64,000 bases of DNA from a bacterium (GCA_021813945.1 JAKAJD010000001.1:496412-560411), one strand, 5' to 3'; positions 711-62,865 are shown, counted from the stretch's first letter. Numbers and translations: made by a program. The notes: generated by a model from the letters alone, not told the origin.

Positions 711-1566
711 CTTTTTTTGCTTGAATCTTTGGCTGTTCGTCTTTAGTTAAGGTCAGGTCTTTTTCTTGGGATCCGGCCTGGGTTAAGGCCTGACCTTTTT
801 GCACAGCCTGACCTTTTTGCACAACCTCTGCAGCAGACTCTCCAGCAAGTGCCACCTTTTGCTGCGCGCTCTTCTTCTCAAACTTTTCCCGCCCGCTCTT
901 ATATGCATCTGCTATAGCGGCAGTAATAATCGCAATCGATTTTATGGCGTCGTCATTTCCAGGAATCGGGTAGTCGACTAGGTTTAAATCCGCATTCGTG
1001 TCGCAAATTGCAACAACCGGTACACCTTTATTTTTAGCCTCCCGGCAAGCGTTTTCTTCGCGCTTAACGTCGATAATGAAAATTGCATCGGGAAGTTTGG
1101 CAAGTTCTTCAACTCCGCCATAAAAGCGGGTCAACTTAGCAATATCTCGGTCTATCAAAAGCTGTTCTTTTTTAGTCCTGTCCTTAAACTCGCCAGTAGC
1201 TTTTTTCTCCTTTAAATCCTTAAGCTTTTTGAGACTTTTGCTGGTTTGCTCAAAGTTAGTAAGAAGTCCACCGATCCAGCGCTCGGTAATGTGCATTGCG
1301 CCAGCTTTTTGGGCTTCTTCCAAAACAATCGATCGGGCTTGTTTTTTTGAACCCAAAAAAATGATAATTCCGCCTGCTTCTCCAATTTTTTCAACAAAAT
1401 TTACAGCTTCTTCCAATTTTGGCACCGTTTGCCCTAAATCTATAACATGAACTCCGTCGCGGGCTCCAAAAATATACTGGTTCATCTTTGGATTCCAACG
1501 ACGTACTTGATGACCGAAGTGGACTCCGGCTTCCAAAAGATCCTGCATTGACGGTACTTTTGACAT
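700..1566 (-). CDS. rpsB: 30S ribosomal protein S2 with a Q/A/K-rich C-terminal extension partly encoded by repeat elements
   Basis: MQDLLEAGVHFGHQVRRWNPKMNQYIFGARDGVHVIDL is the canonical S2 N-terminus. The C-terminal ~60 aa (QKGQAVQKGQALTQAGSQEKDLTLT) overlaps the palindromic repeat copies at 749-819. Confidence 0.92.
   Translation of the reverse strand: MSKVPSMQDLLEAGVHFGHQVRRWNPKMNQYIFGARDGVHVIDLGQTVPKLEEAVNFVEKIGEAGGIIIFLGSKKQARSIVLEEAQKAGAMHITERWIGGLLTNFEQTSKSLKKLKDLKEKKATGEFKDRTKKEQLLIDRDIAKLTRFYGGVEELAKLPDAIFIIDVKREENACREAKNKGVPVVAICDTNADLNLVDYPIPGNDDAIKSIAIITAAIADAYKSGREKFEKKSAQQKVALAGESAAEVVQKGQAVQKGQALTQAGSQEKDLTLTKDEQPKIQAKKDAN
749..819. repeat. AAGGYCWGRCCTT palindromic repeat cluster (3 units), in-frame inside the rpsB 3' region
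   Basis: aaggtcaggtctt (749-761), aaggcctgacctt (785-797), gcctgacctt (807-816). Translated on the minus strand as ...KGQAVQKGQALT... Confidence 0.8.
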
Positions 1567-1722
1567 ATCTTAAATTTATGGGAACAAGCGTGCGTCGTTA
1601 GTCTTTAGACGTTAGACTCTCAAACTTGTCTCCTTTTTCCTCCGCAGGACATGTAGAGTCAGGAGACTTATCCTGCGTGCGAATTAAGGGAAACTATAGC
1701 ACAAAGAAATGTAAAGAATCAA

Positions 1723-2523
1723 TTAGTGGCGGCCAGCCCGATTTCCGCCACGCGGTGAATGAACAGAACGCGATCTCAATTTGTCACCATCCGGCCAAGT
1801 TACTAGACCTAAATCAATTCTTCTATAAACTCTTCCACCAGCTTTCGTGAAACCCTGGTATCTTATGTCTTGATAAGCTCCAAAGACGCGGTTTAATTGT
1901 CTTTCGCTCGCCTCCAGTGGAAACGGCTCGCGACCTTTTGCTTCTTTGCCGTTCATTGCCCTCTTTCGACCCCGCCACTTTGAGGCACTTCAACATTTCT
2001 TGCAGTCTCAGCGTTGCCTTCATCTGACTGAATACGACCAGACACTTGTTCAGCACTTAACCTTGCAGCGAAAGCTCGTGTTTCGGGATTTGGCAAAAAA
2101 TCCCCCACGATGTATCTTCTCCTCTGAAAATTACTTCTATGTACTCTAAATTTTCCGTCCATTTTTCCAAAATAAAAATCGGCAGGAAAAATTTCTTGCC
2201 AACTTATGTGAATTTTATTAAAAAGGCACAAAGCCTGTCAATAAAAGGTGCTAAAAGCTTATGCGCTCCTTACCTTTCCCGAGCAAAGCGTGCCTCTTGC
2301 CCCTATAATACTCCGAAAGTTCACGCGCATGCTCCGGCGTCATCCCTTCCAATCGATTGATTGCTTCCACTACATCTCTATAATCAACTTGCCTAGCTAA
2401 AAAACCTTTTAAAAATGCCTCCTCATCTTCTCTTGGTTTAAAAACACCTTCATTGTGAACCCCATCGCCACCGTTACTTAACCCTCTCCTAAAATTCAAA
2501 GGCGCTGCCAAATGGAATTTCAT
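1723..2523 (-). pseudogene. possible frameshifted or decayed gene: three consecutive minus-strand ORF fragments
   Basis: ORFs 2251-2523, 1953-2231 and 1723-1956 are contiguous on the minus strand in different frames; the last two overlap by 4 nt. The region is GC-richer than neighbouring AT-rich spacers, and no intact ORF over 100 aa exists in about 1 kb. No family recognised. Confidence 0.3.
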
Positions 2524-2638
2524 TCTTCACCCCCTTTTCGACACACATAATTTTATACCTACTCGTCAATAATTTCTTATTTTATACCCGCCAACTTCTT
2601 AGGCCCGCAGTCGATCAAATCGACGAGGACCGCAAGAA

Positions 2639-4411
2639 TCACTTGATACTTGCAAGCTTCTTATCAATTCTCATTTCACTTTCGCGCCTGGCCAAATCGT
2701 ATTTGTTAAAATCCACAAACTTCAAAACATTAACCAGTGTTGGATGGATTTTGGCTACGGCTTCCACCTTTAAATGTTCAATTCTTCTGTAGTCCGGATG
2801 TCCCTGCGGTCCTGTCCTAAGTTCTGCTTCCCAAGCAAGTTCCCTCAAATTTTCCCACTGGTACCAGCGGATTTTATGCCCCATCATCACAACATACTGG
2901 GCTTGGTCCGGATAACGCTTTTTGATCTTCCTGTAAAACTTATCGATTTTCCCCGCCGCATCAACATACGGCTTTTCTAACTTAGCACTGACCAAATCAG
3001 GCGGCACGTCAAACCCTAATTCCGTAGTAAGCCTTTGGCGCTCTTGTGTCAACATCCTGTGACGGTGAAGATCTCGATAGCAGCCAAAATTGGCAATCAG
3101 GTCGAACTTGTAATATGTGTTTTCGAAAGCCCGGACCAATCTATGCTGACGCACACCCCGCCCGGCAATAGCCTTTTTGACAATTGAAAGCTTTTGGTTT
3201 GGCTTCATTTTCAAAACTGCTTCTTTGATCTGATGATAGGAAAGTGTCGAGTACTTGTATAGAAGGCTTGCAACAATTCTGTCTTCGGCGTCTGCATCCC
3301 ATTCCACAAGTTCGACATCGCCTCCTTCGCTAAGGCCAAACCTTTTTCCAAGTGAATCGAGTGCTAAGGTCTGGCCTTTTTCATTGTTAAGGCCAGGCCT
3401 TAACGCTTGAGTGTCCGAGGTAAGGGCCTGGCCTTTACCTAGGCTTGCTGCCAGATCCTCCAACGCCTTTTCCGTCTTCGCCACATACTTTTGGTAAATC
3501 CTTCCCTTTTCACTTGTTGCCCGCTCCACCATCGAAGGGATTACTTCCATCATTTCCCTTTGCGCTGCTTTTCCAATTTCCCGAATTTCCGAAAGTGGCG
3601 ATGCCAAACACTTGGTAATCACATATTCAAAGGCTTGCCCGACACCAAAAAATCCAACATTGGTCAGCGTACCTGCCGGCAAGTACGCCCGCAAAACATC
3701 GTAGGCTTTGGCATTCATCGTTTCACGATATGCCCGGTCGCTTTGCCCTTCTTCCTGCTTAAACTTTCGCCTTAAATATTTAGAAAGGGGCTCCAAAGAC
3801 TCGGAATAGCGCCGAAAAAGCATATTGGAAAGTCGAAGGTACTCGGCCCCGTAAGAAGATTTCGCCAAATTCGGGTCTACAAAATACTGCCAGCTGCCTA
3901 AAACCTTCGTATCAAAAGCTACATAGCGGGTCGATTTTTCCAGTGGCGCAAAGCCGATCCTGAAATCCTCCAGAGTTTTTGTGGCAATTTGCGAAACACC
4001 TTCCAAAAATAAATGCGCTCCGGCCATCTGCGCTATAGAATCATCGCCATAGGCGGCAAGCCACCTTGCAAAGAAACTTCTAGCCCGTTTACTATTTACA
4101 ACTGCTTCCCAGCCGCCATGTGTGTGCAGGAAATCTACAAAAGCTATAAGTTCCTTCTTCATAACCTCCGCCTCTTTTTGCGATTTAGAATCAACACCCT
4201 CCAAATTGGGTTCCAAAATTGGCTTTATGTACTCATCGAAAAATAGTCGGCGCACTCCTTTTGTGGATCTCGAATATCGGGATGCTAGTGCTCCCAAAAC
4301 TTCACTCGGCAAGTACTTCGCCGCAAAAATGTTTTTGTCTAAATTAGTAAAAAACGGGGAAATATACCAAGCCTCTTCTTTTGTAAATTTTTCAACCGGA
4401 AATTTATTCAT
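2639..4411 (-). CDS. thyX: FAD-dependent thymidylate synthase ThyX-family protein (long, 590 aa) carrying an in-frame repeat insertion
   Basis: ThyX signature RHR...S (FGCYRDLHRHRMLTQERQ) and LGALASRYSRS motif. The length is comparable to long two-domain ThyX proteins. Residues GKGQALTSDTQALRPGLNNEKGQTLA are encoded by the repeat copies at 3331-3435. Confidence 0.7.
   Translation of the reverse strand: MNKFPVEKFTKEEAWYISPFFTNLDKNIFAAKYLPSEVLGALASRYSRSTKGVRRLFFDEYIKPILEPNLEGVDSKSQKEAEVMKKELIAFVDFLHTHGGWEAVVNSKRARSFFARWLAAYGDDSIAQMAGAHLFLEGVSQIATKTLEDFRIGFAPLEKSTRYVAFDTKVLGSWQYFVDPNLAKSSYGAEYLRLSNMLFRRYSESLEPLSKYLRRKFKQEEGQSDRAYRETMNAKAYDVLRAYLPAGTLTNVGFFGVGQAFEYVITKCLASPLSEIREIGKAAQREMMEVIPSMVERATSEKGRIYQKYVAKTEKALEDLAASLGKGQALTSDTQALRPGLNNEKGQTLALDSLGKRFGLSEGGDVELVEWDADAEDRIVASLLYKYSTLSYHQIKEAVLKMKPNQKLSIVKKAIAGRGVRQHRLVRAFENTYYKFDLIANFGCYRDLHRHRMLTQERQRLTTELGFDVPPDLVSAKLEKPYVDAAGKIDKFYRKIKKRYPDQAQYVVMMGHKIRWYQWENLRELAWEAELRTGPQGHPDYRRIEHLKVEAVAKIHPTLVNVLKFVDFNKYDLARRESEMRIDKKLASIK
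3331..3435. repeat. AAGGYCWGRCCTT palindromic repeat cluster (4 units), in-frame inside thyX
   Basis: taaggccaaaccttt (3331-3345), aaggtctggcctt (3366-3378), aaggccaggcctt (3389-3401), aagggcctggcctt (3422-3435). Confidence 0.8.
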
Positions 4412-6791: not shown

Positions 6792-6862
6792 AAGGCCTTT
6801 TTGTCACGCCCCGTGTTAAGGGCAGGTCTTAGGCCAGGCTTACCCTTGTAAGGTCTGCCCTT
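6792..6862. repeat. palindromic repeat hairpin spanning the dcd-topA intergenic region and the last codons of topA
   Basis: gaaggcctttt (6792-6801); aagggcaggtctt (6818-6830) and aaggtctgccctt (6850-6862) form an inverted pair. The topA stop codon (6840-6842) lies inside the element, so the topA C-terminus ...EEKGQTLQG is encoded by it. Confidence 0.8.
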
Positions 6863-8849
6863 TTTCCTCTGGTTTAGAAACTTCCAATTTCGGCTTCGTC
6901 CAGCTTGCAAACTTACATTTTGGCCAATTGCTGCATCCCCAAAAAGTTTTTCCCCGTTTTGTCCTGCGGGTTACCACGTCACCGGTTTTACAATCCGGGC
7001 ATTTCATACCCGTTTCCTCATTTAAAGCTTTTGTGTTTTTACAATCCGGAAAACCCGAACATGCCAAAAACTTTCCAAACCTTCCGTATCTAACCACCAT
7101 TGGCTTTCCGCATTTGTCGCAAATCTCGTCCGTAGTTTCCACTTCGACTTTCATTTTGTCTGCCTCCTCGGCAACCTTTTCGACCTTCGCTTCAAACGGC
7201 CCCCAAAATTTCTTCATGGTTGGCGGCATTTCTGCCTTACCCTGAGCGATACTATCCAAATCGTCCTCCATCTCCGCCGTAAACGAATAATCGAAAATGT
7301 CGGAAAAATATTTCATCAGAAAATCGATCGTTGTTTTTCCAATCGGCGTCGGTGCGATTTTCTTGCCTTCCATTTTTTCTATATATAACCTGTCGTATAA
7401 AGTTGAAATTGTCGGTGCATAAGTAGAAGGCCTGCCAATCCCGTTTTTCTCCAAGTCGCGGATTAGTGTTGCCTCGGTATACCTTGCTGGCGGTTCAGTG
7501 AATTTCTGTTGAGGATTGATATTTTTGAAGTCGAGCGCTTCACCTTTTACCAAAGTTGGCAACACCTGTTCTGTGATCGGTGCCTTTTCGTAAACCTTAT
7601 ACCAACCGTCAAATTTTATCTGCTGACCCGTAGCCCTCAAAAGATATTTTTGAGAGGTGGCACTTGCCTCAACCTCAACCGCCGTTTCATTAACAACCGC
7701 TTCGGCCATTTGGCAAACAACCATCCGCTTCCATATCAGGTCGTAAAGTTTTTTCTCGTCCGGGCTTCCATCTATCGACTGACGGGAAACATTGGTCGGC
7801 CTAATTGCTTCATGCGCTTCCTGTGCCAACCTCGATTTGACCTTGTATGCCCGCGGCTTTTCCGGTAAATAATTCCTCCCGTAATTTTCTTCAATAAACT
7901 TTCTTGTCGCAGAAACGGCTTGAGGCGACAAATTCACGGAATCTGTTCTCATATAAGTAATCAGTCCGTTTTCATAAAGGCTTTGGGCAACACTCATTGT
8001 GCGCTTTGGCACAAACCCCAAAACGTTAGCTGCCCGCTGCTGCAAGGTTGAAGTTGTAAATGGAGGATTCGGATATTTTTTAACTTCTTTCGACTCAACC
8101 GAAGAGACAGAATAGTCGGAAACCTTAAGGTCTGAAACTGCTTGATCCGCTTCCTTTTGATTTTTAACTTCGGCTTTCTTCCCGTTGATCTTGGCAAGCG
8201 TAATTACAAACTGGTCTCTGGCCTCTGGTTGCTGGCGACTAACTTCTACTTCAATCACCCAGTATTCTTCACTCTTGAACGCTTCTATTTCCCGCTCCCT
8301 TTCAACAACCAGACGCAAAGCTACCGATTGCACCCTGCCAGCCGAAAGCTTGCTTTTGACCTTTTTCCACAAAAGCGGCGAGAGCTTGTAACCGACTAAT
8401 CGATCCAGAATTCGCCTTGCCTGTTGGGCCTCCACCAGATTTTGGTCCAAATCCCTTGGATGCGAAAATGCATCCAGTACCGCGTCTTTTGTAATTTCAT
8501 GGAAAACGACACGCTGGTATTTTTGCCTTGCCATTTTTGCTTTGGATTTCTGCTCAATAACCTTAAGCAAATTCCATGCAATAGCTTCCCCTTCCCGGTC
8601 AGGGTCGGTGGCAAGGTATAAATTGGTAACACCCTCTGTAGATTTAACCAGCTGGTTGACCATCTTCATTTTGTTTTTGGGAATTACGTACTTCGGCTCG
8701 AAGTTGTGATCCACATCCACGCCAAATTCGCCTTTTGGCAAATCACGAACGTGCCCCATCGAAGCCAATATTTGATAGTCGCTTCCCAAATACTGGGTAA
8801 GCGTCCTTGCTTTGGTTGGCGACTCAACAATAACTAAATTTTTCGACAT
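6840..8849 (-). CDS. topA: DNA topoisomerase I
   Basis: N-terminal Toprim LVIVESPTKARTLTQYLG...GHVRDLP and C-terminal Cys4 zinc ribbons (CDKCGKPMV...CSGFPDC, CPDC...CSNWPKC). Confidence 0.93.
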   Translation of the reverse strand: MSKNLVIVESPTKARTLTQYLGSDYQILASMGHVRDLPKGEFGVDVDHNFEPKYVIPKNKMKMVNQLVKSTEGVTNLYLATDPDREGEAIAWNLLKVIEQKSKAKMARQKYQRVVFHEITKDAVLDAFSHPRDLDQNLVEAQQARRILDRLVGYKLSPLLWKKVKSKLSAGRVQSVALRLVVEREREIEAFKSEEYWVIEVEVSRQQPEARDQFVITLAKINGKKAEVKNQKEADQAVSDLKVSDYSVSSVESKEVKKYPNPPFTTSTLQQRAANVLGFVPKRTMSVAQSLYENGLITYMRTDSVNLSPQAVSATRKFIEENYGRNYLPEKPRAYKVKSRLAQEAHEAIRPTNVSRQSIDGSPDEKKLYDLIWKRMVVCQMAEAVVNETAVEVEASATSQKYLLRATGQQIKFDGWYKVYEKAPITEQVLPTLVKGEALDFKNINPQQKFTEPPARYTEATLIRDLEKNGIGRPSTYAPTISTLYDRLYIEKMEGKKIAPTPIGKTTIDFLMKYFSDIFDYSFTAEMEDDLDSIAQGKAEMPPTMKKFWGPFEAKVEKVAEEADKMKVEVETTDEICDKCGKPMVVRYGRFGKFLACSGFPDCKNTKALNEETGMKCPDCKTGDVVTRRTKRGKTFWGCSNWPKCKFASWTKPKLEVSKPEEKGQTLQG

Positions 8850-17673: not shown

Positions 17674-19422
17674 TTAGCTTCTGTTCTTTACCCACCAATC
17701 TAAAATTTCCCTGGCAACCGGCCCTGCAACAACCGATCCCTCACCACCGTTTTCGACAACTACAGTAATCGAAACTGCAGGTTTATCAAATGGGGCATAA
17801 GCTGTGAACCAAGCATGTGGGTCACCCAAAGTCTTTTCCGCAGTTCCTGTTTTGCACCCAACTTTATACGGTGCATTAAAAAAGGGCACACCCGTTCCTC
17901 CGCTTTGGCAGGCCTGCTCCATACCAGATCGTACTACACCAACAAACTTTGAATCAACTAAATTCTCGCCTTTTACATTTCCCTTAAAATTTATTTCACC
18001 GCTTCCGGCACCGGCATCAATCTTAGAAACCACGTAAGGTTTAGTTAATTTTCCGCTGGCAACATAAGAAGTCATTTGGTTTATCTGGATTGGTGTTGTC
18101 AGCAAAAATCCCTGGCCTATCCCAAGATGCATCGTATCACCGGGGTACCAATCCTCACCCAAAGTGGATTTTTTCCAAACGCCGTCCGGGACCAGCCCGA
18201 AAGCCTCACCCGGCAAATCTATCCCGGTGACTTGTCCGAATCCCAACTTTACTAACAACTTGTGAAGATCTTCTATCCCCACCATTTGTGCCGCTTTAAA
18301 GAAAAAAATGTCATTGGACCTGGCGATAGCCCTGTCAATTTTTATAACCCCGTCCGTTTTCCCATACTGGTTGAAATACCAATTGGAAAAAGTTGTCCCC
18401 GAAAACTCAAACTTCCCGACGTCTTCGATTTCGGTGTCCGGTGTAATTTTTCCACTGGAGAGCCCGGCCATTGCCACAGCCAGCTTAAAAACAGACCCGG
18501 GCGGATAAACCCCCTGGATTGCCCTGTCGAAAAACGGCTGGTTCGGGTCGCCCATCGATTTTCCAATATCAAACGGGTTAAATGAAGGGGCCGAAGCCAA
18601 AGCCAAAACTTCCCCTGTTTGGGGGTTTTGGACAATAACCGCGCCTTTTTTAGTCCCGATTTTGTCCGTTTGTTTTTTCAAAGCGTCAAAGGCAATTTTT
18701 TGTAAGTTTGAATCTAAAGTTAAATGAAGGTCCCTGCCCGAAACCGCTTTTGCATCGTCCAAAATAGAAATCTTGTTTCCAGTTGCGTCTACCTCGATTA
18801 ATTTTTCGCCGGGCTTTCCCTGCAAAAAACTATCGTAAGCCTGCTCAACACCTAGGCGCCCAACGGAATTTATTTTCGAGAGATTGGGATTATTTTCAAA
18901 ATCCGAACTGTTTGCAACACTTGTGTAACCTAAAACATGGGCAGTGACATCACCTAACGTATAGACACGTTTGACACCTTGTTTGATTTGCCCCAGATCA
19001 CCTTTAAAGTTTTCGCCGGCAAGCCCTTGTTTTTCCAAATCGGCAACTTGTTGATTAGTAATTACTGTATCGTGCCCGTCCTTTTCCAAAACATAAGAAG
19101 TTTGCGACTGGGCCAAAATCCCGCCGTTTCTGTCAAAAATCCTGCCTCTTGGGGCTTCAGTCTTCAGAAGACTGATTCTGTTTCCTTCCGAAAGTTCCTT
19201 ATTTTCTGCGCCGTGAACCACTGAAAGCGAAAAAAGCCTGCCGACAAAAACCAAAAGCACCACAACTACCAAAATGTAAAAAGGGTAAAAAGAAGAAATA
19301 GGAAAGCTTCCACCGTCAGAAAAGAAACTGGATGAATCGGGATCGCGGAATTTCCAATGGCGTTTACCGGAAGCGCTTATGGAATGTTCCATACCCAGCA
19401 GTCTTGGTTTTGGCTTCTTCAC
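17674..19422 (-). CDS. mrdA: penicillin-binding protein 2 (peptidoglycan D,D-transpeptidase; MrdA/FtsI family)
   Basis: N-terminal TM anchor, then PBP dimerisation and transpeptidase domains: SVFKLAVAMAGL (SxxK), KTGTAE (KTG). Adjacent to mreB. Confidence 0.85.
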   Translation of the reverse strand: MKKPKPRLLGMEHSISASGKRHWKFRDPDSSSFFSDGGSFPISSFYPFYILVVVVLLVFVGRLFSLSVVHGAENKELSEGNRISLLKTEAPRGRIFDRNGGILAQSQTSYVLEKDGHDTVITNQQVADLEKQGLAGENFKGDLGQIKQGVKRVYTLGDVTAHVLGYTSVANSSDFENNPNLSKINSVGRLGVEQAYDSFLQGKPGEKLIEVDATGNKISILDDAKAVSGRDLHLTLDSNLQKIAFDALKKQTDKIGTKKGAVIVQNPQTGEVLALASAPSFNPFDIGKSMGDPNQPFFDRAIQGVYPPGSVFKLAVAMAGLSSGKITPDTEIEDVGKFEFSGTTFSNWYFNQYGKTDGVIKIDRAIARSNDIFFFKAAQMVGIEDLHKLLVKLGFGQVTGIDLPGEAFGLVPDGVWKKSTLGEDWYPGDTMHLGIGQGFLLTTPIQINQMTSYVASGKLTKPYVVSKIDAGAGSGEINFKGNVKGENLVDSKFVGVVRSGMEQACQSGGTGVPFFNAPYKVGCKTGTAEKTLGDPHAWFTAYAPFDKPAVSITVVVENGGEGSVVAGPVAREILDWWVKNRS

Positions 19423-24384: not shown

Positions 24385-25380
24385 ATGGCAAAAATCTTAG
24401 ACGGCCGGACTGTGCGCGACAAGATATTAGACAATCTTAAAACGCAGATCGCTAATCTTAAAACGAAACCAAAACTGATTATTATTCAAGTCGGCGACCT
24501 GGATGAAAGCAACACTTATATCGGGCAGAAAATTAAATTCGGCCAGAAAATCGGTGCCATTGCCGAACTTAAAAAATTCCCCGCCGACATTACTCAAAAC
24601 CAGCTGACCTCCCAGCTCCAACAGCTAAATGCTGACCCAACAGTCCACGGCATTATCATCCAGCTGCCAATTTCCCAACATTTGGACAAAGACGAATTGA
24701 TAGAGATGATTGATCCAAAAAAAGACGTTGATGGTCTAACTGCTACAAACGAAGAACTTTTGGAAGAAAACAATCCCGATGCCTTAGTCCCCGCAACCGC
24801 CAAAGGCGTCATCACCATCCTTAACTATTACAAAGTGCCGATTAAAGGCAAAAAAGCAGCAGTTGTCGGCCGATCTAAACTTGTCGGCAAGCCGGTAGCA
24901 ACGCTTCTCAGAAATTTGGGAGCCGAAGTTGAAGTCGGCCACAGCCAAACGCCGAATCTGACAGTTCTTACAAAACCGGCAGACATCATCGTTGTCGCCG
25001 TCGGGAAACCAAACTTAATCACCAAAAACCACGTTTCCCCCGGCCAAACAGTAGTCGATGTAGGTATAAACGTTGTCCAACCGGACAAGGTCAGGCCTTG
25101 GAAAACTGAAAGGCCTGACCTTAAAATCAAAGAAAAAGGCCTGACCTTAGCTAAGCCAGATGACAAGGCCAGGCCTTTTGCCAACGACGGATCTCAGTTA
25201 AGGCCTGGCCTTAACGCAAGCCGAAAACTCGTTGGCGACGTCGCCTTCACCGAAGTCGAACCAATTGTCGCTGCCATTACCCCCGTCCCCGGCGGCATTG
25301 GCCCCATGACCGTCGCCTCCCTCTACGAAAACCTTCTCCTAGCCTACGAATCCCAAAAATTAATTTCTAAAAGGAGCTAA
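24385..25380 (+). CDS. folD: bifunctional methylenetetrahydrofolate dehydrogenase/cyclohydrolase carrying a ~45-aa repeat-encoded insertion
   Basis: LIIIQVGD..S..Y, DVDGL, AVVGRSKLVGKPVATLL, VVDVGIN, ITPVPGGIGPMTVA. Insertion VRPWKTERPDLKIKEKGLTLAKPDDKARPFANDGSQLRPGLNASRKL lies between VDVGINVV and GDVAFTE, where canonical FolD has a short loop. Confidence 0.9.
   Translation: MAKILDGRTVRDKILDNLKTQIANLKTKPKLIIIQVGDLDESNTYIGQKIKFGQKIGAIAELKKFPADITQNQLTSQLQQLNADPTVHGIIIQLPISQHLDKDELIEMIDPKKDVDGLTATNEELLEENNPDALVPATAKGVITILNYYKVPIKGKKAAVVGRSKLVGKPVATLLRNLGAEVEVGHSQTPNLTVLTKPADIIVVAVGKPNLITKNHVSPGQTVVDVGINVVQPDKVRPWKTERPDLKIKEKGLTLAKPDDKARPFANDGSQLRPGLNASRKLVGDVAFTEVEPIVAAITPVPGGIGPMTVASLYENLLLAYESQKLISKRS
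25087..25212. repeat. AAGGYCWGRCCTT palindromic repeat cluster (5 units), in-frame inside folD
   Basis: aaggtcaggcctt (25087-99), aaggcctgacctt (25110-22), aaggcctgacctt (25136-48), aaggccaggcctt (25165-77), aaggcctggcctt (25200-12). Confidence 0.85.
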
Positions 25381-26715: not shown

Positions 26716-28470
26716 ATGTACGCGGATGTTGTCGTATTAACCTACCAAGCACCGGATATCGACTCTTTTACATATGAAATTCCCAAAGGCCTAGACGTAA
26801 AAATCGGCCAACTGGTCGAAGTGCCATTCGGCAATAGACGTCCGACGGGAATAGTTGTGTCTAAAGACGAACGACTAAAGACTAACGCCAAAAATATTAG
26901 GCCCATTTCAAAGATTCTGCTCAACCGACCGATTTTGCTTCCCTATCAAATCGAACTCCTTAAATGGATGGCCAACTACTACCTCGCCCCAATGGTCAAC
27001 TGTCTGGAAGTAATGATGCCGAAAATCCCCAAAAAGTCTCTAGGCGAAAAGGCCAGGCCTTTACGCACGGACTCACCTCAGTTAAGGCCTGGCCTGAACC
27101 TTAACCATCAAGCGCAAAAGGTCAAGCCTTGGAAAACTGAAAGGTCTGACCTTAAGTTTAGCCAATCAATAATCCTCATCCCCTCAATCAACCGCATTCC
27201 GGAAACGTTAGCCAAATTCCCAAAAGCCAAAAATCCCGTCGTCTATCACAACGAACTAAAACCGGCGGAAAAACTTAACGCTTGGCAAAAAATTCTCTCC
27301 AGCGATGCTGATTACATTTTTGGGTCCAGATCCGCCGTTTTCGCTCCTTGCCCAAACCTTTCGGAGATCATAATCTACGACGAGCACGACGGCGCCTACA
27401 AAGACGAGCGCTCACCTTATTTTGACACCTTAACTGTTGCCCAAAAAATCGTAGAGCTCACCCGCGCCGAGCTAAAAATAGTCGACCCTTGTCCAAAAAT
27501 CACTACTTATTTTGGTCTTAAAAACCATATCAAAATGCAAAACTTTCCTCAAGAAACCACCGTAGTGGATATGCAAAACGAAAAGCAAAGCGGCCGCAAG
27601 AGCCCGATAAGCTTTGACCTCGAAGAAAAAATCCAAAATACTATTGACGAAAAAGGTAGTATTTTCCTGTTCTTAAACAAAAAGAAGGAGTCCGGTCACA
27701 TGTTTTGCAAATCTTGCAAGAATTCGCAGTTTCTGCAAAAACAACCGGAAACTTGCCCTGAATGTGCCTCTGCAGATATTTTTTGGAACGTTTTAAATAT
27801 CGACTCGCTTTCCGCCGAAGTTAAAAGACTATTTCCAAAAACGAAGGTTAATGCTATTTCTGGCGTTAGTCGTTCGTCGTTAAACGTTAGTCAAATTACA
27901 ATCGGGACGGCTTACTCCCTCTATGCCCAGCTTTTGAAAAAATACGATCTTGTAGCCCACATCCAAACCGATTCGGTCGCAAATCTTCCCGACTTTAACT
28001 CGCAAGAAAAACTTTACGCGCAAATTACGTCTTTGAAAAAACTTCTCACACCGGGCGGCAAACTATTCTTGCAAACCTACAATGTTGAAAATCGAACTAT
28101 AGAAGCTGCTGCAACCGGGAACTACCAGGCTTTTTTCGAAAGCGAAATATACCAAAAGAAACCTCTTAACTATCCCCCTTTTGGAATGCTTTTTAAGCTA
28201 ACCGCAAAGGGCAAAAACAAAGAAAAAATTCAAAAAGAGGCTCAGAAATTTTACGCGCAGCTGAAATCAAAACTCGATGAAAACATCACAACCCTCGGGC
28301 CTTATGAATCAGTCTTTATGCAAAAAACGCCAAGCTATCATATAATCTGCAAATACAAGCTTAAAAATTTCAGCTTATCGGAAAGAGAAAAGGCTGCCAA
28401 ACACGTAAGACCCCTAATCACCTTGCCCAAAAACTGGCAAGTTACAGTAGAACCTGATTCAATTAACTAA
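26716..28470 (+). CDS. priA: primosomal protein N' (PriA) homologue lacking an obvious Walker A; the repeat insertion sits at that position
   Basis: N-terminal 3'-DNA-binding domain VVVLTYQAPDIDSFTYEIP...VEVPFGNRRPTGIVV. Helicase motifs Ia/Ib/II present (IILIPSINRIPETLA, FGSRSAVFAP, IIYDEHDGAYKDE), then a Cys cluster CKSC...CPEC. No GxGKT; the corresponding position holds the repeat-derived peptide. Confidence 0.7.
   Translation: MYADVVVLTYQAPDIDSFTYEIPKGLDVKIGQLVEVPFGNRRPTGIVVSKDERLKTNAKNIRPISKILLNRPILLPYQIELLKWMANYYLAPMVNCLEVMMPKIPKKSLGEKARPLRTDSPQLRPGLNLNHQAQKVKPWKTERSDLKFSQSIILIPSINRIPETLAKFPKAKNPVVYHNELKPAEKLNAWQKILSSDADYIFGSRSAVFAPCPNLSEIIIYDEHDGAYKDERSPYFDTLTVAQKIVELTRAELKIVDPCPKITTYFGLKNHIKMQNFPQETTVVDMQNEKQSGRKSPISFDLEEKIQNTIDEKGSIFLFLNKKKESGHMFCKSCKNSQFLQKQPETCPECASADIFWNVLNIDSLSAEVKRLFPKTKVNAISGVSRSSLNVSQITIGTAYSLYAQLLKKYDLVAHIQTDSVANLPDFNSQEKLYAQITSLKKLLTPGGKLFLQTYNVENRTIEAAATGNYQAFFESEIYQKKPLNYPPFGMLFKLTAKGKNKEKIQKEAQKFYAQLKSKLDENITTLGPYESVFMQKTPSYHIICKYKLKNFSLSEREKAAKHVRPLITLPKNWQVTVEPDSIN
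27049..27153. repeat. AAGGYCWGRCCTT palindromic repeat cluster (4 units), in-frame inside priA
   Basis: aaggccaggcctt (27049-61), aaggcctggcct (27084-95), aaggtcaagcctt (27118-30), aaggtctgacctt (27141-53). Shares the loop ggaaaactgaaa with the folD copy. Confidence 0.85.
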
Positions 28471-31894: not shown

Positions 31895-32005
31895 AAGGCC
31901 AGGCCTTTTCGCAGTAGTTCGTCTTGGTTAAGGCCTGGCCTTAACGAACGTTGACTAAAGGGCAGGCCTCAACCAAAGCCCTTTCCACGAAAAAGACCTG
32001 CCTTT
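31895..32005. repeat. intergenic cluster of palindromic repeat units (4 units)
   Basis: aaggccaggcctt (31895-907), aaggcctggcctt (31930-42), aagggcaggcct (31958-69), agacctgcctt (31994-32004). Confidence 0.8.
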
Positions 32006-36805: not shown

Positions 36806-36807
36806 TC

Positions 36808-40904: not shown

Positions 40905-41093
40905 ATGGCAAAGTCAAAAAGAGTCTTGTTCCAGCTGCAATGCACTGTTTGTAAATCGAAAAATTACACAAACAGCAAAAATCCGGACAATATCGCGCTA
41001 AAGCGCAAAAGCCAGGACACCAAAATTAACCTCAAAAAGTTCTGTAAGCGTTGCAGAAAAGTTACCGAGCATAAAGAGGTCAAGATAGCTTAA
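40905..41093 (+). CDS. rpmG: 50S ribosomal protein L33
   Basis: Zinc-ribbon CTVCKS...CKRC and KVTEHKEVK; typical L33 length. Confidence 0.88.
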   Translation: MAKSKRVLFQLQCTVCKSKNYTNSKNPDNIALKRKSQDTKINLKKFCKRCRKVTEHKEVKIA

Positions 41094-41138
41094 GGTCAGG
41101 TCTTAGGCTAAAAACTAATCCAACAAAGGCCTGACCTT
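41092..41138. repeat. ~47-bp composite palindromic element (terminator-like) starting at the rpmG stop codon
   Basis: aaggtcaggtcttaggctaaaaactaatccaacaaaggcctgacctt. Near-identical copies at 61676-61721 (same orientation) and 62751-62786 (inverted). Confidence 0.85.
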
Positions 41139-43705: not shown

Positions 43706-43772
43706 AAGGTCAGGCCTTAGGCAAAAAGGTCAGGCCTTAAAGTACGCCAGTTCCAAGAAAAAGGCCTGACCT
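43706..43772. repeat. palindromic repeat cluster (3 units) downstream of the giant pilin gene
   Basis: aaggtcaggcctt x2 (43706-18, 43726-38) and the inverted aaggcctgacct (43761-72). Confidence 0.8.
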
Positions 43773-43838
43773 CAAACTATGCCATCTTTTCGCTCTTTAC
43801 CGAGTTTTATCCGATTTTATATAATATTGACTGAATTT

Positions 43839-46739: not shown

Positions 46740-47822
46740 ATGGGACACAATATTAATATAGTAAATACTCTAAAAGGCAAAAATTTAGATGCGGCGATTA
46801 TTACAAATCCGATAAATATTTTTTATCTATCGGGTTTTCGTGGCGTTTCTCCGACAGAGCGCGAGGCAATCATGATCGTTTTTAAATCCAAACCATCACT
46901 TCTTATAACCGCCAAACTTTATCAGGCAGAAGCCCAAAAGCTTAAATCGAAAAATCTTAAGATCCAAATAACAGCCGAAAGGGCCGAAGTTCAAAAAACC
47001 ATCGAATCGGCGCTTTCAAATCTTAAAGGAATTGCTTTTGAGGGGGAAAATCTCACTTTTTCGGAATATAAAAAATATCAGAAACTTCTTAAAAGAAAAC
47101 TTGTCCCTGTAAGGGATTTAGTTGAAAATCTCCGACAAATTAAAAATGAAGATGAAATTGCAAATATCAAAAAAGCTCAGGCCTTGACTCAATCGGTCTT
47201 TGATGAAGTGTTAAAAACCATAAAAGTCGGCCAACCCGAAGCAGAAATTAAAGATAACCTGGAAAAAATCGCCAAGATCAAGTCACGAGAACCGCTTGCT
47301 TTTGATCCAATCATTGCTTCCGGACCAAATTCATCTTTGCCTCATTACGTAACTGGAAACCGCAAAATCAAAAAGGGTGATGCATTACTTTTTGATTTTG
47401 GCCTAAAGTACAAAAATTACTGCGCCGATTTTTCCCGAACTATTTTTGTCGGCCGCGCTACTGAAGAACAAAAAAACATTTACACTCTTGTTGCTCTAGC
47501 CCAAAAGGAAGCGCTTAAAAAGCTAAAGACAAATATCAAAGCCAAAGATGTTTACCTGGAAGCTTTTAACCTTTTCAAAAAGAATTCGCTGGAGGACAAA
47601 TTTATCCACAGCCTAGGTCACGGCATCGGCTTAGAAGTTCACGAAAAACCTTCTCTATATGTAAAAAGCAAGGATATCCTCGTTCCCGGCATGGTTTTCT
47701 CCGTTGAGCCGGGCCTTTACATGAGCTGGGGCGGAGTCAGAATTGAAGATTTAGCAACCATAAAAAACAACCAGGCAGAAATTTTTGGGAAAAACGCGAA
47801 GTTTATTGAGCTAAACCATTAG
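46740..47822 (+). CDS. pepP: M24-family Xaa-Pro aminopeptidase/dipeptidase
   Basis: Creatinase N-domain plus pita-bread fold with metal ligands: DFG...D, HSLGHGIGLEVHE, FSVEPGLY. Confidence 0.8.
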   Translation: MGHNINIVNTLKGKNLDAAIITNPINIFYLSGFRGVSPTEREAIMIVFKSKPSLLITAKLYQAEAQKLKSKNLKIQITAERAEVQKTIESALSNLKGIAFEGENLTFSEYKKYQKLLKRKLVPVRDLVENLRQIKNEDEIANIKKAQALTQSVFDEVLKTIKVGQPEAEIKDNLEKIAKIKSREPLAFDPIIASGPNSSLPHYVTGNRKIKKGDALLFDFGLKYKNYCADFSRTIFVGRATEEQKNIYTLVALAQKEALKKLKTNIKAKDVYLEAFNLFKKNSLEDKFIHSLGHGIGLEVHEKPSLYVKSKDILVPGMVFSVEPGLYMSWGGVRIEDLATIKNNQAEIFGKNAKFIELNH

Positions 47823-51013: not shown

Positions 51014-51062
51014 AAGGCCGGTCCTTAGCTCAAGCTAATTCTCGGAAAAAAGGTCTGGCCTT
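51014..51062. repeat. palindromic repeat pair
   Basis: aaggccggtcctt (51014-26) and aaggtctggcctt (51050-62). Confidence 0.7.
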
Positions 51063-53020: not shown

Positions 53021-53215
53021 GTGGCATTTAATCCGTTAACATACGTCAAAGAATCGAAAGCTGAACTCGAAAAAGTTATCTGGCCTACCCGCCAGGAAAC
53101 TTTACGATTAACTGTAATAGTTCTTTTAGTTGCAGTTGTGGTTGGCGCTTATGTTGCTGGCCTTGACACAATTTTTACTAAAATAACCGAAAGCCTTCTT
53201 AAGGTACACAAGTAA
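53021..53215 (+). CDS. secE: preprotein translocase subunit SecE
   Basis: [40 protein letters not shown]. Start placed at GTG 53021, with GGGAG 10 nt upstream. Stop overlaps the nusG ATG by 1 nt. Confidence 0.8.
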
Positions 53216-54126
53216 TGGACGACCAGGACGACAAGAAAATACAAGAAGATATAGCTGAAGAGGTTCCACAGGTTGTGGAAGAAAACAGCGCGGAAGAAAC
53301 AATGCCAACGGAGGATCAGTCGGAACCGTTGGAGGATCAAGCAACTTTTGCCCAGCCAGAAGACCAAGAGCCTTCTGAAAATCAGCCTTCTGGGGAAGAT
53401 CAGCCACAGTCAGAAGAAGAATCGCAAGAACTAGCATCTGAGCCAGAATCACCAAACGACCGAAACGCCGAAGAACAAAAAACCGCAGAAGAGCCAGTTG
53501 CAGACGAAGCTTCCGAATCAGTGGATCAAGCTGAAGAAAACCCGGAGGAATCTGAAATCCCAACCCCTGAAGAAAAACCGGCGCCCCAAAAACCCAAAAC
53601 CCCTGGTGCCAATTGGTACGTAGTCCACACCTACTCGGGTCATGAGTCAAAAGTCGCCGCTACCCTAAAACAAAGGGTGGACTCGCAAAAACTTTCGGAC
53701 AAAATCTTAGACATACTTGTCCCTACACAAGAAAAGATCGAAATAAAAGAAGGTAAGAAAAACACAGTAAAAGAGAAAATCTTCCCCGGCTATCTTCTAG
53801 TTCATATGATTTTGGATGATGCCACCTGGCTTGCCGTCAGAACAACACCTGGAATAACTGGTTTTATTGGAACTTCCAACAAACCAACCCCTCTTCCAGA
53901 AGACGAGGTTGAAACCATCAAACGCTTCATGAGCATGGAAGCGCCGAAATTTAAAGCCGCATTTTCAGTTGGTGAGGCAGTCAAAATTACCGACGGCCCA
54001 TTTTCGGAATTTTTGGGGTCGATTTCTGAAATCGACGAAGAAAAAGGCAAACTCAAAGTTTTGGTTTCGATTTTTGGACGAGAAACACCAGTCGAATTGG
54101 ATTTCCTCCAAGTTGCTAAGCTTTAA
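53215..54126 (+). CDS. nusG: transcription termination/antitermination factor NusG with a ~130-aa acidic N-terminal extension
   Basis: NGN domain [14 protein letters not shown]...[10 protein letters not shown] and C-terminal KOW ([22 protein letters not shown]). Residues 1-130 are D/E/Q/P-rich low complexity. Confidence 0.9.
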
Positions 54127-54157: not shown

Positions 54158-54203
54158 AAGGGCAGGCCTTTGTGCTGCATAATCAGGGTTAAGGCCTGCC
54201 CTT
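54158..54203. repeat. inverted palindromic repeat pair (terminator-like) 30 nt after the nusG stop
   Basis: aagggcaggcctt (54158-70) ... aaggcctgccctt (54191-203). Confidence 0.8.
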
Positions 54204-56668: not shown

Positions 56669-56836
56669 ATTTCGGCAAAATCAACTCCTTGACAGGAACG
56701 TTTGCATCTGATAATTTTCCCCTGCTATTTCCCAAAACTGCCTTTTTATTCAAACTATCATGCCGGCAAAAACCCTAATTAATATTCAAAGTTGGATCAA
56801 GCTTCGCTTGACGTTAAAAAGGAGGTGATAAAAAGA

Positions 56837-56929
56837 ATGATCGATGAAACAAGAATTATTGACGACGAAGACGACGACGAAGAAGAAAAAGACGAGGAAG
56901 AATCAGCAGATGAGGACGACGCAATGTAG
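56837..56929 (+). CDS. 30-aa hyper-acidic peptide (MIDETRIIDDEDDDEEEKDEEESADEDDAM) with strong SD and its own terminator
   Basis: Perfect Shine-Dalgarno aaggaggtga 7 nt upstream of the ATG, in a genome where most genes lack an SD. Terminator hairpin immediately downstream. Confidence 0.4.
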   Translation: MIDETRIIDDEDDDEEEKDEEESADEDDAM

Positions 56930-56943
56930 TCTGGAAGTTTCAT

Positions 56944-56980
56944 AAAAGCCTCACGAATGTTTGTTTTGTGAGGCTTTTTC
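56944..56980 (+). terminator. rho-independent terminator
   Basis: aaaagcctcac-gaatgtttgttttg-gtgaggcttttt: 10-bp stem plus T-run. Confidence 0.65.
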
Positions 56981-56997
56981 GTTGTAAAAACCTGGTT

Positions 56998-57080
56998 AAG
57001 GGCAGGCCTTAACCTATGGCTTTTGCTGCAAAAAGGCCTGCCCTTTATCGTGTAAATGAGGTAGAAAAAGACCTGACCTT
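56998..57080. repeat. palindromic repeat cluster (3 units)
   Basis: aagggcaggcctt (56998-57010), aaggcctgccctt (57033-45), agacctgacctt (57068-80). Confidence 0.8.
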
Positions 57081-57103
57081 GAGTATGAAGTAGGTGATCT
57101 GTA

Positions 57104-57133
57104 TTGACAAACTTCACCAAAATCTAGTTTAAT
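57104..57133 (+). promoter_or_regulatory. sigma70-like promoter candidate for the rplJ-rplL leader
   Basis: TTGACA (57104-09), 18-nt spacer, TTTAAT (57128-33). Followed by a ~180-nt untranslated leader, consistent with the L10 autoregulatory leader position. Confidence 0.4.
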
Positions 57134-58470: not shown

Positions 58471-58476
58471 CTAGAA

Positions 58477-58524
58477 AAGGTCAGGCCTTAGCCTAAGTCA
58501 AGACTAAGAAAAAGGCCTGACCTT
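58477..58524. repeat. inverted palindromic repeat pair (terminator-like) 7 nt after the rplL stop
   Basis: aaggtcaggcctt-agcctaagtcaagactaagaaa-aaggcctgacctt. Confidence 0.85.
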
Positions 58525-58569
58525 GAGCTATTGATATGCAACCATTGCCAAAACCCCCTTTTTGCCCAC

Positions 58570-58598
58570 TTGACCGGCAATTTTTCCCATGATACATT
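58570..58598 (+). promoter_or_regulatory. sigma70-like promoter candidate upstream of the excisionase-like gene
   Basis: TTGACC, 17-nt spacer, TACATT. Confidence 0.25.
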
Positions 58599-58680
58599 GG
58601 AGTCCGAAAGTGATTTCTTCGTTCTCTAGAATGACACACTTAGATCACACTAATTTATTAATCAAAATTCAAACATCAAC

Positions 58681-58893: not shown

Positions 58894-58932
58894 ACCCTTT
58901 TCCTTGCTTTAAAATTTCCTTCTATATATAAT

Positions 58933-59790: not shown

Positions 59791-59865
59791 ATTTTATCCC
59801 CAAAATCGTTTTATTTTAAAAAATTTTATGCTCAACTGTCATATGTCTCCAAAAATTGCTATACT

Positions 59866-60621: not shown

Positions 60622-60672
60622 GCGCTAACCCATAAAAATCGCCTAATCCCATAACTCCTCATTTTTACGCTC

Positions 60673-60825
60673 AAGGCCAGGCCTTCAGGCTGAAAATGGC
60701 CGATTTCAGGCTGAAGCCTTAAAAGCTAAAACTAGCAAGTTAGGTCAAATTTGAGGCTAAATATCCGCTTTCGAGGTCAAGAGCAGGCCTTTACCTTGGC
60801 GTTTTCAGGAAAAAGGCCTGCCCTT
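60673..60825. repeat. intergenic palindromic repeat cluster plus a short direct repeat
   Basis: aaggccaggcctt (60673-85); direct repeat ttcaggctgaa x2; aagagcaggcctt (60779-91); aaggcctgccctt (60813-25). Confidence 0.8.
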
Positions 60826-60875
60826 ATTCCACCTTTCGCCTTAATCCTCCACATTTTTTGTGCTAAAATACCTAA

Positions 60876-61667: not shown

Positions 61668-61675
61668 GTTTAGTT

Positions 61676-61775
61676 AAGGTCAGGTCTTAGGCTAAGAATA
61701 TCCCAACAAAGGCCTGACCTTTTAGCTCACACTCTTACGAAGGTCTGGCCTTGGAAAACTAAAAGGCCAGACCTT
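61676..61775. repeat. composite palindromic element array flanking the galT 3' side
   Basis: Copy of the 47-bp element (61676-61721), then aaggtctggccttggaaaactaaaaggccagacctt (61740-75) and TTGAGATAAC. Confidence 0.85.
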
Positions 61776-61808
61776 GAGATAACAATTGGTTATCTGAAAA
61801 CGCAACTT

Positions 61809-62717
61809 TTACCCGTTTAAAATCTTCTCTTCCAAAGTCTCACCAATATCTTCTTCCTTCAAGGCTTCCGCAGCATCAACAGGATCAATAGTATTTACAG
61901 AAAGCCCCGTCCCCAACTCAAATCCGGCCCTGTGCACCAACCTTGGAATTATCCGTATATACCAATCTTTTCCATGGTGGACGTAGTAGTTGTAAGCAGG
62001 CCCGTCTTTAAACGCAACCATGGGCATTCCGGGATGGTAATGCCCCGCTCCCGAAAGATGCTTTATCAGCCGCCTTAAGGCGTTTTGAAGCACGTATGCC
62101 AAATCATCTGCCTCTTCGTCTGTTATTTGGCCAAAAAACTCCCCACGCCGTTTAGGAGCTATCCATAATTCAAAGGGCCATTGCGAGAAATTCGGGCAGA
62201 ACACTACGAAGTTTTTGTTATCCACAACCGTATTGACAACAGCCTCAAGCGGTAGTGTGTCTAAATTGATTTGCTTAGGCACAACCACCAGCTGCGAATG
62301 GGGATGTCTAATAGAAGCCCCTGCAACCTCCCCAACGTTGTTAAAGATAATCGTATGGCCAATATCTTTATTGGCATTAAATCGCTCCCTATAAACCCGC
62401 AAAATAAGCCTTACCTGCTCAAGCGGTAGTTTATCAATATCGAGCTTATCGTCTGGTGAATGGACAATCACTTCATGGAAATCGGTGATCGGAAACTTAT
62501 TTTTTATAACCCTTACCTTCCAGCCTCGCTCATAAGCTTTCCCCTCACCAACTCGATAGATTTCCTCGCCTGGTATGCGCTCAAAACCCGGACAAAAAAC
62601 GCATATCTTATTGACGTTTGCCGACTTTGTCTTGTCTGTATCTACCGGCCTTTTTGTGCGACCCTCGGCAAAGATAACCCAACGGTTGGTAGTTATATCT
62701 GGAACGTACTTCGCCAT
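61809..62717 (-). CDS. galT: galactose-1-phosphate uridylyltransferase (HIT-family, GalT type)
   Basis: CVFCPG (Zn site), FENKG-like NNVGEVAGASIRHPHSQLVVVP (HxHxQ active site), duplicated HIT-like halves. Confidence 0.85.
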   Translation of the reverse strand: MAKYVPDITTNRWVIFAEGRTKRPVDTDKTKSANVNKICVFCPGFERIPGEEIYRVGEGKAYERGWKVRVIKNKFPITDFHEVIVHSPDDKLDIDKLPLEQVRLILRVYRERFNANKDIGHTIIFNNVGEVAGASIRHPHSQLVVVPKQINLDTLPLEAVVNTVVDNKNFVVFCPNFSQWPFELWIAPKRRGEFFGQITDEEADDLAYVLQNALRRLIKHLSGAGHYHPGMPMVAFKDGPAYNYYVHHGKDWYIRIIPRLVHRAGFELGTGLSVNTIDPVDAAEALKEEDIGETLEEKILNG

Positions 62718-62750
62718 AAACTCAGTTTAGCATTTTTACGAAGGTCTGGC

Positions 62751-62865
62751 CTTTGTTGGGATATTCTCAGCCTAAGACCTGACCTTGAGATAGCGGTCGG
62801 TAACTTATCCCACGCAAAGCGCAGGCCTTTTTTCTGACAAAAGACTGAGGTCAAGGCCTGTCCTG
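62751..62865. repeat. composite palindromic element array flanking the galT 5' side (inverted relative to 61676-61775)
   Basis: ttacgaaggtctggcctttgttgggatattctcagcctaagacctgaccttgagatagc is the reverse complement of the 47-bp element; further units at 62819-35 and 62848-65. Confidence 0.85.

Follow-up and report, generated by a model that had tools for sequence, protein, structure and literature searches.

The stretch analyzed here (GCA_021813945.1, JAKAJD010000001.1:496412-560411; 64,000 nt, hereafter the window) comes from Candidatus Curtissbacteria, a member of the candidate phyla radiation (CPR) with a genome of ~1 Mb, in line with the CPR-type origin proposed in an initial annotation made from the sequence alone. 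Host genes identified with Pfam include those for ribosomal protein S2 (rpsB, 700-1566), a tandem ThyX (2639-4411), TopA (6840-8849), FolD (24385-25380), PriA (26716-28470), ribosomal proteins L33 and L7/L12, NusG, a HAD/PMM protein, and a large pilin-like protein. Dispersed within and between these genes is a 13-nt imperfect palindrome, the AAGGNCWGNCCTT family, with the arm consensus AAGGNCAGGCCTT and its complement. Copies occur at gene ends and also in frame inside rpsB, thyX, folD, priA, and the 3' end of topA (Table 1), and we discuss below what kind of mobile element they may represent.

Overall, 46 copies in 18 clusters could be detected at ≤2 mismatches to AAGGCCWGGCCTT, against 1.8 expected and a maximum of 5 in first-order Markov simulations at the same threshold. 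The strict pattern AAGGYCWRRCCTT gave 48 strand-matches at ~25 sites, compared to 0.06 expected from dinucleotide shuffles, so that the >40 copies originally counted are well supported. This corresponds to a density of ~0.7 per kb, and to the strong over-representation of a short imperfect palindrome by which repetitive extragenic palindromes (REPs) are recognized. Inverted pairs make up the majority of copies, with arm starts 23 or 32-36 nt apart, and come in two module types. Type B modules are 36 bp long, with a conserved 10-nt loop (GGAAAACTRA) between two 13-mers, and lie at 25087 (folD), 27118 (priA), and 61740 (galT flank), i.e., at the three loci for which the initial annotation had proposed a shared module. 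Type A modules are 45-49 bp long with a loosely conserved 19-23-nt spacer (~64-68% alike in a hand comparison), while the type B loop is nearly invariant except for flips of its orientation. Each pair is predicted to form a hairpin with a 13-bp stem, at -20 to -31 kcal/mol as RNA (z-scores of -3 to -7) and -14 to -17 kcal/mol as single-stranded DNA (z-scores of -5 to -6.4), as had been anticipated for the inverted pairs.

We next considered whether the 13-mer or the pair is the relevant unit, using a non-redundant set of 47 doublets drawn from the window and from related loci, all either 36 bp or 41-49 bp long. Position 5 of the stem is variable (T:A in 24 doublets, C:G in 14, and G:C in 7), and the two arms form a Watson-Crick pair at this position in 45 of the 47 doublets, compared to 19.0 ± 3.1 (maximum 32) when partners were shuffled in 20,000 permutations. 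Within a single 13-mer, by contrast, self-complementarity at this position is seen in just 11 of the 47. At the central base (stem position 7), A:T is found in 40 doublets and T:A in 4. The unit is thus the hairpin doublet and not the palindromic 13-mer. Arms that covary between partners are not expected of motifs that serve for binding or uptake and arise independently of each other.

Seventeen of the 46 copies are genic, all of them in frame and with all three frames used, which bears out the initial annotation as to the in-frame copies in rpsB, thyX, folD, and priA and the last codons of topA. Relative to a coding fraction of 0.887, genic copies (17/45, 38%) are depleted (p = 5e-16), which fits purifying selection on insertions. 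The genic modules encode recurring peptides, including KGQALT/KGQTLA/KGLTLA, LRPGLN/ERPDLK, KARPF/KARPL/KVRPWK, and KVRPWKTERPDLK, and the reading of such words from several frames and orientations was likewise recovered; further examples of the peptides expected from modules, if translated, are VRPWKTERPDLK and ARPFANDGSQLRPGLN. Depending on the variant, the 13-mer is free of stop codons in 5 or 6 of the 6 frames, and the 36-bp module in 4/6. Because both are largely stop-free, translation of the surviving genic copies, into short peptides rich in Lys, Arg, Pro, and Gly, is most likely. In-frame insertion into unrelated housekeeping genes with recurrent peptides (here KGQAL, LRPGL, KARP, and VRPWKTERPDL) is how Rickettsia palindromic elements (RPEs) are recognized, and insertion sites compatible with the protein fold, another of their features, are found here as well (a FolD loop, the S2 and TopA tails, and the ThyX and PriA linkers).

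We then compared orthologous loci from related genomes (denoted by L numbers), which include filled, differently filled, and empty sites. All five genic insertions are lineage-specific, as initially proposed, and lie in a loop, linkers, or tails. At the same folD codon position, L009 is empty, the window, L007, L003, and L014 carry a type B module in forward orientation, L008 carries one with the loop reversed, and L011 carries a type A module in another frame; the full set of type B module, single 13-mer, and type A module is that of the window. Similarly, the PriA linker holds type A and B modules in the window, type A only in L007, a flipped type B in L008, L009, and L010, and a forward type B in L011. 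In the ThyX linker, two modules are present in the window, one in relatives with 88% and 86% identity, and none in a 79% identical relative and most others. For S2, L017 has a decayed version of the tail module, and L018 and L019 have none. In topA, the module of the window stands in place of the longer acidic tail kept by L017 and L018, and L017 has modules just past the topA stop. Among the 120 closest FolD homologues, 12 have at least two module-encoded words in the loop and 28 are ≤290 aa long. The possibility that the peptides are ancestral low-complexity segments is ruled out by the empty sites, by the reading of the same DNA in three frames and both orientations, and by conservation beyond synonymous-site identity. 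An assembly artefact is also ruled out, as independent assemblies from NCBI, ENA, and JGI contain the modules in identical form. Between two assemblies of one species, no module differed.

At the protein level, the expectation that inserts would fall in surface loops held for FolD, while the inserts of S2 and TopA are in tails and those of ThyX and PriA in linkers; FolD is the only case in which a folded domain is interrupted. Its residues 238-279 are not matched in solved FolD structures, the alignment skipping from chain residue 246 to 250. In the AlphaFold model (mean predicted local distance difference test, pLDDT, of 88), the sole segment below 50 spans residues 236-277 and forms an unstructured excursion between two strands. 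In the 288-aa S2, the Pfam domain extends to aa 225 and the module copies lie in the C-terminal tail beyond it, while the PriA insert is located between the 3'BD and the helicase lobe. The ThyX model (mean pLDDT 61) is too poor to place the insert with confidence.

The DNA of the arms is more constant than its coding context. Across the window, L007, L008, and L009, folD and priA are 61-77% identical overall and 43-55% identical at third-codon positions, compared to 90-97% for the 26 arm nucleotides, and the type B loop is the same except for flips. The constancy of the arm DNA has a cause other than the encoded peptide; candidates are copying, either recent or recurrent, correction templated by the hairpin, and a function. 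Both orientations of the type B loop are found at one codon in folD, and again in priA, and yield VRP-WKTE-RPDL or VRP-LSFP-RPDL. The most plausible cause is that the loop flips in place by way of the hairpin, as is known to happen in plastomes (PMC6824564). In the small inversions of plastids (PMC6824564), the loop between short inverted repeats is likewise seen in either orientation at one locus across related genomes, which implies recurrent flip-flop via a hairpin or cruciform. Plastid inversions are however non-coding, whereas the Curtissbacteria flip occurs within an open reading frame (ORF), keeps the frame, and swaps four amino acids.

A second arm family was found in a more distant member of Curtissbacteria (L020, GCA_001775235.1), which is without the AAGGCC family. 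Here, arms CACCCCCGGGGTG and CACCCCGGGGGTG surround a conserved 23-nt spacer to form 49-bp modules, and three copies sharing this spacer, along with a covarying variant CACTCCCGGAGTG, occur within 17 kb. Since different arms are found in the same layout, the architecture is shared and the arm sequence lineage-specific. One of these copies lies in the same FolD loop (translation HPRGEIKTKPGEHPGG), so that this loop was colonized independently by two arm families. In more distant Curtissbacteria FolDs (P0040-P0060; L020 8752-8790), a "KPETEP" word recurs in this loop, encoded by DNA (AAGCCAGAAACTGAACC) that is similar to the type B loop region but was not recognized as a repeat.

A candidate enzyme was identified in a sister genome, the metagenome-assembled genome (MAG) WY5.bin133, from which both L007 and a further contig (L005) derive. 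L005 encodes at 1522-2124 a 200-aa IS200-like Y1 transposase (PF01797, E = 1.4e-17) with an HUH motif (PNHIHLL) and a YIHLNP motif, whose best NCBIfam match is REP_Tyr_transpos (NF047646, 71 bits, vs 23.6 bits for the IS200 model). The 13-mer occurs 27 nt upstream of the gene start and 64 nt beyond its stop, as part of a 42-nt repeat of which the surroundings of the gene hold three copies, and decayed copies of this longer repeat are recognizable in the window at ~60673-60752. A Y1 transposase gene flanked by an abundant palindromic repeat of its own genome is the hallmark of REP-associated tyrosine transposases (RAYTs; PMC3337134). Based on these data, we infer that the genome of the window itself encodes a RAYT-type gene, and that a RAYT-like enzyme moves the elements.

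We propose that the elements form a dispersed repeat family of the REPIN type (REP doublets forming hairpins), common to a clade of Curtissbacteria genomes, with copying by a Y1 enzyme and translated genic survivors, and we estimate the probability of this reading at roughly two in three. Several traits are shared with the REPIN/RAYT systems of Pseudomonas and E. coli (PMC3116915, PMC3337134, PMC5581495), including an over-represented imperfect palindrome in inverted hairpin doublets, a central asymmetric base by which doublets take either a common or a rare configuration (PMC3337134), coexisting spacings, type A spacers less conserved than the arms, related genomes with different arm families, and a repeat-flanked Y1/HUH gene in a sister genome that scores best against the RAYT model. 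Under this REPIN-type scenario, the REP-associated tyrosine (Y1/HUH) transposase would copy modules via single-stranded hairpin intermediates, and because genomes of ~1 Mb with ~89% coding density are gene-dense, many insertions would strike genes. Only genic copies with a length in multiples of three, an open frame, and a permissive site (the FolD surface loop, the ThyX and PriA linkers, or the S2 and TopA tails) would survive. Once established, a hairpin may keep its arms complementary, and sometimes flip its loop, by template switching or cruciform resolution, and a flip would offer two alternative peptides at one site.

Several differences from known REPINs have to be considered. Curtissbacteria modules are 36-49 bp long, compared to ~89 bp or more in Pseudomonas, and the host is a CPR bacterium with a ~1-Mb genome. 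REPs are almost exclusively extragenic, with 14 of 1,067 REP 16-mers (~1%) overlapping genes in P. fluorescens SBW25 (PMC3116915), whereas 38% of the Curtissbacteria copies are genic. Other points weigh directly against the REPIN/RAYT interpretation. The NF047646 score of 71 bits is below the curated equivalog cut-off of 80, the L005 protein has no sequence-level PDB match, and the gene is flanked by single 13-mers in a longer direct repeat, not by hairpin doublets. No RAYT-like gene was found by tblastn in the 64-kb window, the only one seen being that of the sister MAG, although this is expected for a single-copy gene. In addition, REPIN spacers are typically variable while the type B loop is conserved, and the 13-nt arms start with AAGG and do not carry the GTAG/CGTC end tag that PMC3733652 reports for most REPs. 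Finally, movement is read from presence/absence and differing occupants at orthologous sites, and the high arm conservation could reflect a host function instead of ongoing copying.

Among the alternatives, we considered functional RNA hairpins, i.e., terminators, attenuators, or 3'-end stabilizers selected at gene ends, with accidental genic copies. Six modules are indeed located 0-31 nt from stop codons (rpmG, pilin gene, rplL, HAD/PMM gene, nusG, and topA), as listed in the initial annotation, all but that of topA beginning at or past the stop, the predicted hairpins are strong, and co-option for attenuation has been proposed for REPINs (PMC3337134). The further suggestion that they resemble bidirectional terminators of the type of REPs and bacterial interspersed mosaic elements was not supported: loops are 10-23 nt long, the modules are not followed by a T-run, A prevails at the first two bases downstream, and a terminator scan returned 30 sites vs 25 expected without flagging modules, so that they do not look like Rho-independent terminators. 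Moreover, modules occur in both orientations and within ORFs, no Rfam family matches them, and selection at gene ends leaves the spread of the elements unexplained. This explanation is thus unlikely as a primary one, and a co-opted role at gene ends is possible at most as a secondary function of REPIN-type elements.

A conventional DDE transposase moving a miniature transposable element bearing inverted repeats (MITE) or RPE-type element, with the 13-mers as terminal inverted repeats and a target-site duplication, would account for inverted-repeat ends, dispersal, and RPE-like in-frame insertion. However, no target-site duplication or conserved target was found in filled/empty site comparisons or in the flank profile of modules, which shows only a weak G-W-W / W-W-C stem extension (G-W-W preceding the arm in a subset, as GTTAAGG), and no parent insertion sequence with these ends was seen. 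The modules (36-49 bp) are also shorter than described MITEs and RPEs (~100-150 bp), their arms pair over their full length as one hairpin with compensatory changes, and the sole transposase found beside the repeat is a Y1 enzyme, making a DDE-driven origin very unlikely. ERIC/RU elements and ORF-bearing MITEs (Delihas 2007, PMC2759123; PMC2229807) are comparable as small non-autonomous stem-loop repeats with occasional in-frame gene fusions, but are 100-170 bp long, mainly intergenic, and often have terminal inverted repeats and target duplications, the latter not being seen for the Curtissbacteria modules.

RPEs themselves, which the initial annotation had taken as the model for an independent selfish element, share palindromic in-frame inserts in unrelated housekeeping genes, recurring peptides, fold-compatible sites, and a small gene-dense host genome, according to the summary in PMC10969869. 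In that summary, RPEs are ~100-150 bp long, fall into ten families, and occur in Rickettsia only (Ogata et al. 2000 and 2002), and no transposase association is presented as established. By contrast, the Curtissbacteria modules are 3-4 times shorter, built as 13-mer doublets, and read in several frames and both orientations, and a relationship to RPEs is not evident from this comparison, which is one of descriptions only. The central proposal of in-frame selfish elements held on the tests run, whereas by anatomy, and by the Y1 association in the sister genome, the elements appear better filed as REPIN/RAYT-type than as relatives of RPEs.

Another view would be that the motif itself is kept abundant by drive or selection, as for uptake sequences, HIP1-like palindromes, or the site of a dimeric protein, with pairs as a by-product. 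Uptake sequences occur about once per kb, are present in coding DNA in several frames, and form inverted pairs after genes. Density (~0.7 per kb), coding copies read in more than one frame, inverted pairs behind genes, and conservation across related species, here at orthologous sites while flanks diverge, are thus shared with those of Pasteurellaceae and Neisseriaceae, and competence-type genes (DprA and type IV pilins) are encoded in the window. Uptake sequences, however, lack symmetry, are found mostly as single copies, and originate through substitution, whereas the Curtissbacteria unit is a covarying doublet in which single 13-mers are often not self-complementary, and doublets with preferred spacings dominate. 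Genic copies are insertions of whole 36-48-bp modules rather than codon substitutions, and whole modules, loops included, recur at unlinked loci. We accordingly give this view little credence. A purely local origin, in which template switching at quasi-palindromes and slippage act without transposition from one locus to another, is as improbable: it would fit the perfect or near-perfect arms, the loop flips at the same codon (as in plastome hairpins, PMC6824564), and the tandem or nested arrangements in folD and thyX, but identical arms and 10-nt loops at many unlinked loci in several genomes require inter-locus copying, as do the three L020 copies with a shared 23-nt spacer, and template switching probably contributes to maintenance and flipping of the REPIN-type modules and not to their dispersal.

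Beyond the window, type B modules with the same loop were detected at unrelated loci in L005, L006, L015, and L016. A scan of the genome collection with a strict type B pattern (loop fixed as CTRA, which misses flipped and TTA-loop variants) returned 4 loci, and a looser pattern applied to metagenomes returned 7. These scans point to a narrow distribution of the type B module and do not represent a census. With the 46-aa FolD insert peptide, a protein search by word index yielded no candidates and an index-free one gave 0 matches at E ≤ 0.001 among 1.84 billion representatives, results that are uninformative as single modules are too short to score. No hairpin pairs were found in viral contigs, which provides no evidence of a phage vector.

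In the literature searched, we found no link of such elements, or of RAYTs, to CPR/Patescibacteria. REPs are extragenic by name and observation, and RPEs have been a near-unique genic case for 25 years; the Curtissbacteria elements join both behaviors. This suggests that scarce intergenic space filters hairpin repeats into permissive protein loops, and may explain some of the unexplained insertions in CPR proteins. A bolder and rather unlikely proposal is that, in Curtissbacteria and perhaps other CPR, REPIN/RAYT systems act as a standing source of protein change, in which hairpins recolonize permissive loops of core enzymes, arms stay constant as DNA through a host- or RAYT-linked function or hairpin-templated correction, and flipping loops toggle between WKTE and LSFP. 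If true, the toggling loops would be a DNA-hairpin-based switch inside essential genes, and the elements more than tolerated parasites. Either way, the 36-bp modules, the two families of arms, and the single candidate enzyme provide a compact system to test mobility, hairpin-templated maintenance, flipping, and the effects of inserts.

Table 1 Repeat modules in the window and second-family modules of L020. Coordinates are in nt from the first letter of the window unless a contig is given.
Feature	Position	Strand	Description
rpsB tail	749..819	-	49-bp module, arms 749-761 and 785-797, plus decayed direct 13-mer at ~805-817; encodes QKGQAVQKGQALTQAGSQEKDLTL
thyX linker	3332..3435	-	Four 13-mers: 47-bp modules 3389-3435 and 3332-3378, overlapping 36-bp pairing 3366-3401; encodes GKGQALTSDTQALRPGLNNEKGQTLALDSLGKRFGLS
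topA 3' end	6818..6862	-	45-bp module; last codons KGQTLQG, TAA stop in loop
folD insert	25087..25212	+	126 bp, 42 codons: type B 25087-25122 (36 bp, loop GGAAAACTGA), single 13-mer 25136-25148, type A 25165-25212 (48 bp); encodes KVRPWKTERPDLKIKEKGLTLAKPDDKARPFANDGSQLRPGL
priA linker insert	27049..27153	+	48-bp type A 27049-27096 and partly decayed 36-bp type B 27118-27153; encodes KARPLRTDSPQLRPGLN...KVKPWKTERSDLK
M50 peptidase / LytR_C convergent spacer	31895..31970	.	48-bp module and one further 13-mer
rpmG (L33) end	41092..41138	.	47-bp module starting inside the stop; first two bases of the arm complete TAA
Pilin-like gene (837 aa) end	43706..43773	.	4 nt past stop; direct 13-mer pair 20 nt apart, then 48-bp hairpin; three 13-mers
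Spacer beside RRM-protein gene	51014..51062	.	49-bp module, arms partly decayed
nusG end	54158..54203	.	46-bp module, G:C arm variant AAGGGCAGGCCTT / AAGGCCTGCCCTT, 31 nt past stop
rplA-rplJ spacer	56998..57080	.	48-bp module (G:C variant) and further 13-mer
rplL end	58477..58524	.	48-bp module, perfect arms, 6 nt past stop; flanks lengthen stem
RAYT-repeat remnants	60673..60825	.	13-mer, two decayed longer-repeat copies (~60673-60752), then 47-bp module 60779-60825
HAD/PMM-galT-like convergent spacer	61676..61775	.	46-bp type A 61676-61721 and 36-bp type B 61740-61775, loop GGAAAACTAA
Upstream of galT-like gene	62741..62865	.	46-bp module 62741-62786 and decayed 49-bp pair 62817-62865
Second-family modules	L020 8703-8751, 12092-12140, 16798-16843, 16858-16909		

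Among the intergenic modules, the one in the M50/LytR_C spacer has a counterpart in the orthologous spacer of L007, with covarying arms, at 18299-18345. The ORFs predicted at 56797-57120 (-) and 62693-62854 (-) are probably spurious and held open by the stop-free repeats. More generally, stop-free repeats of this kind open spurious ORFs, lengthen annotated proteins, and can inflate gene calls in MAGs. One or two isolated 13-mers, such as that at 47173, may be chance matches: this imperfect 13-mer (47173-47185, AAGCTCAGGCCTT, encoding KAQALT) lies in an Xaa-Pro aminopeptidase-like gene (46740-47822), and is either a chance match or a decayed single copy.

Several observations concern the host proteins and their neighborhoods. 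NusG (53215-54126), L1 (55736-56668), and L7/L12 (57877-58470) have long acidic low-complexity N-terminal extensions, their Pfam domains starting at ~aa 133, 123, and 74, respectively, and these extensions are unrelated to the 13-mer family. PriA of the window and its relatives (~566-584 aa) can be aligned to solved PriA over two parts only, the 3'BD and the helicase from residue ~261 on. It lacks the winged-helix domain and the Walker-A segment (there is no GKT motif) and retains a DEHD Walker-B motif; in place of the two lost parts there is a linker, which holds the hairpin insert. ThyX is a conserved tandem fusion of ~560-590 aa across Curtissbacteria with a hypervariable inter-domain linker. 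Between rpsB and thyX, region 1600-2620 of the window holds short doubtful ORFs only, with no Rfam or tRNA match, and relatives have small unannotated ORFs in this interval.

Among the related loci, L003 (CAZEDQ010000027.1) is labelled "uncultured Gammaproteobacteria" and carries a Curtissbacteria-type folD with a type B module, so that it is probably mis-binned. The FolD loop of L007 (10700-10741) contains an extra 39-nt insert upstream of the module (gaccagttaccagagaccagagaccagaca..., DQLPETRDQTEGQ); this insert contains a short repeat of its own and bears no relation to the 13-mer. Finally, genes for four-helix-bundle proteins resembling bAvd and the proteins of 23S-rRNA intervening sequences adjoin topA and SHMT in relatives (L017 1508-1864; L007 7081-7443); these genes are absent at the corresponding sites of the window, and could mark retroelement-related cassettes.

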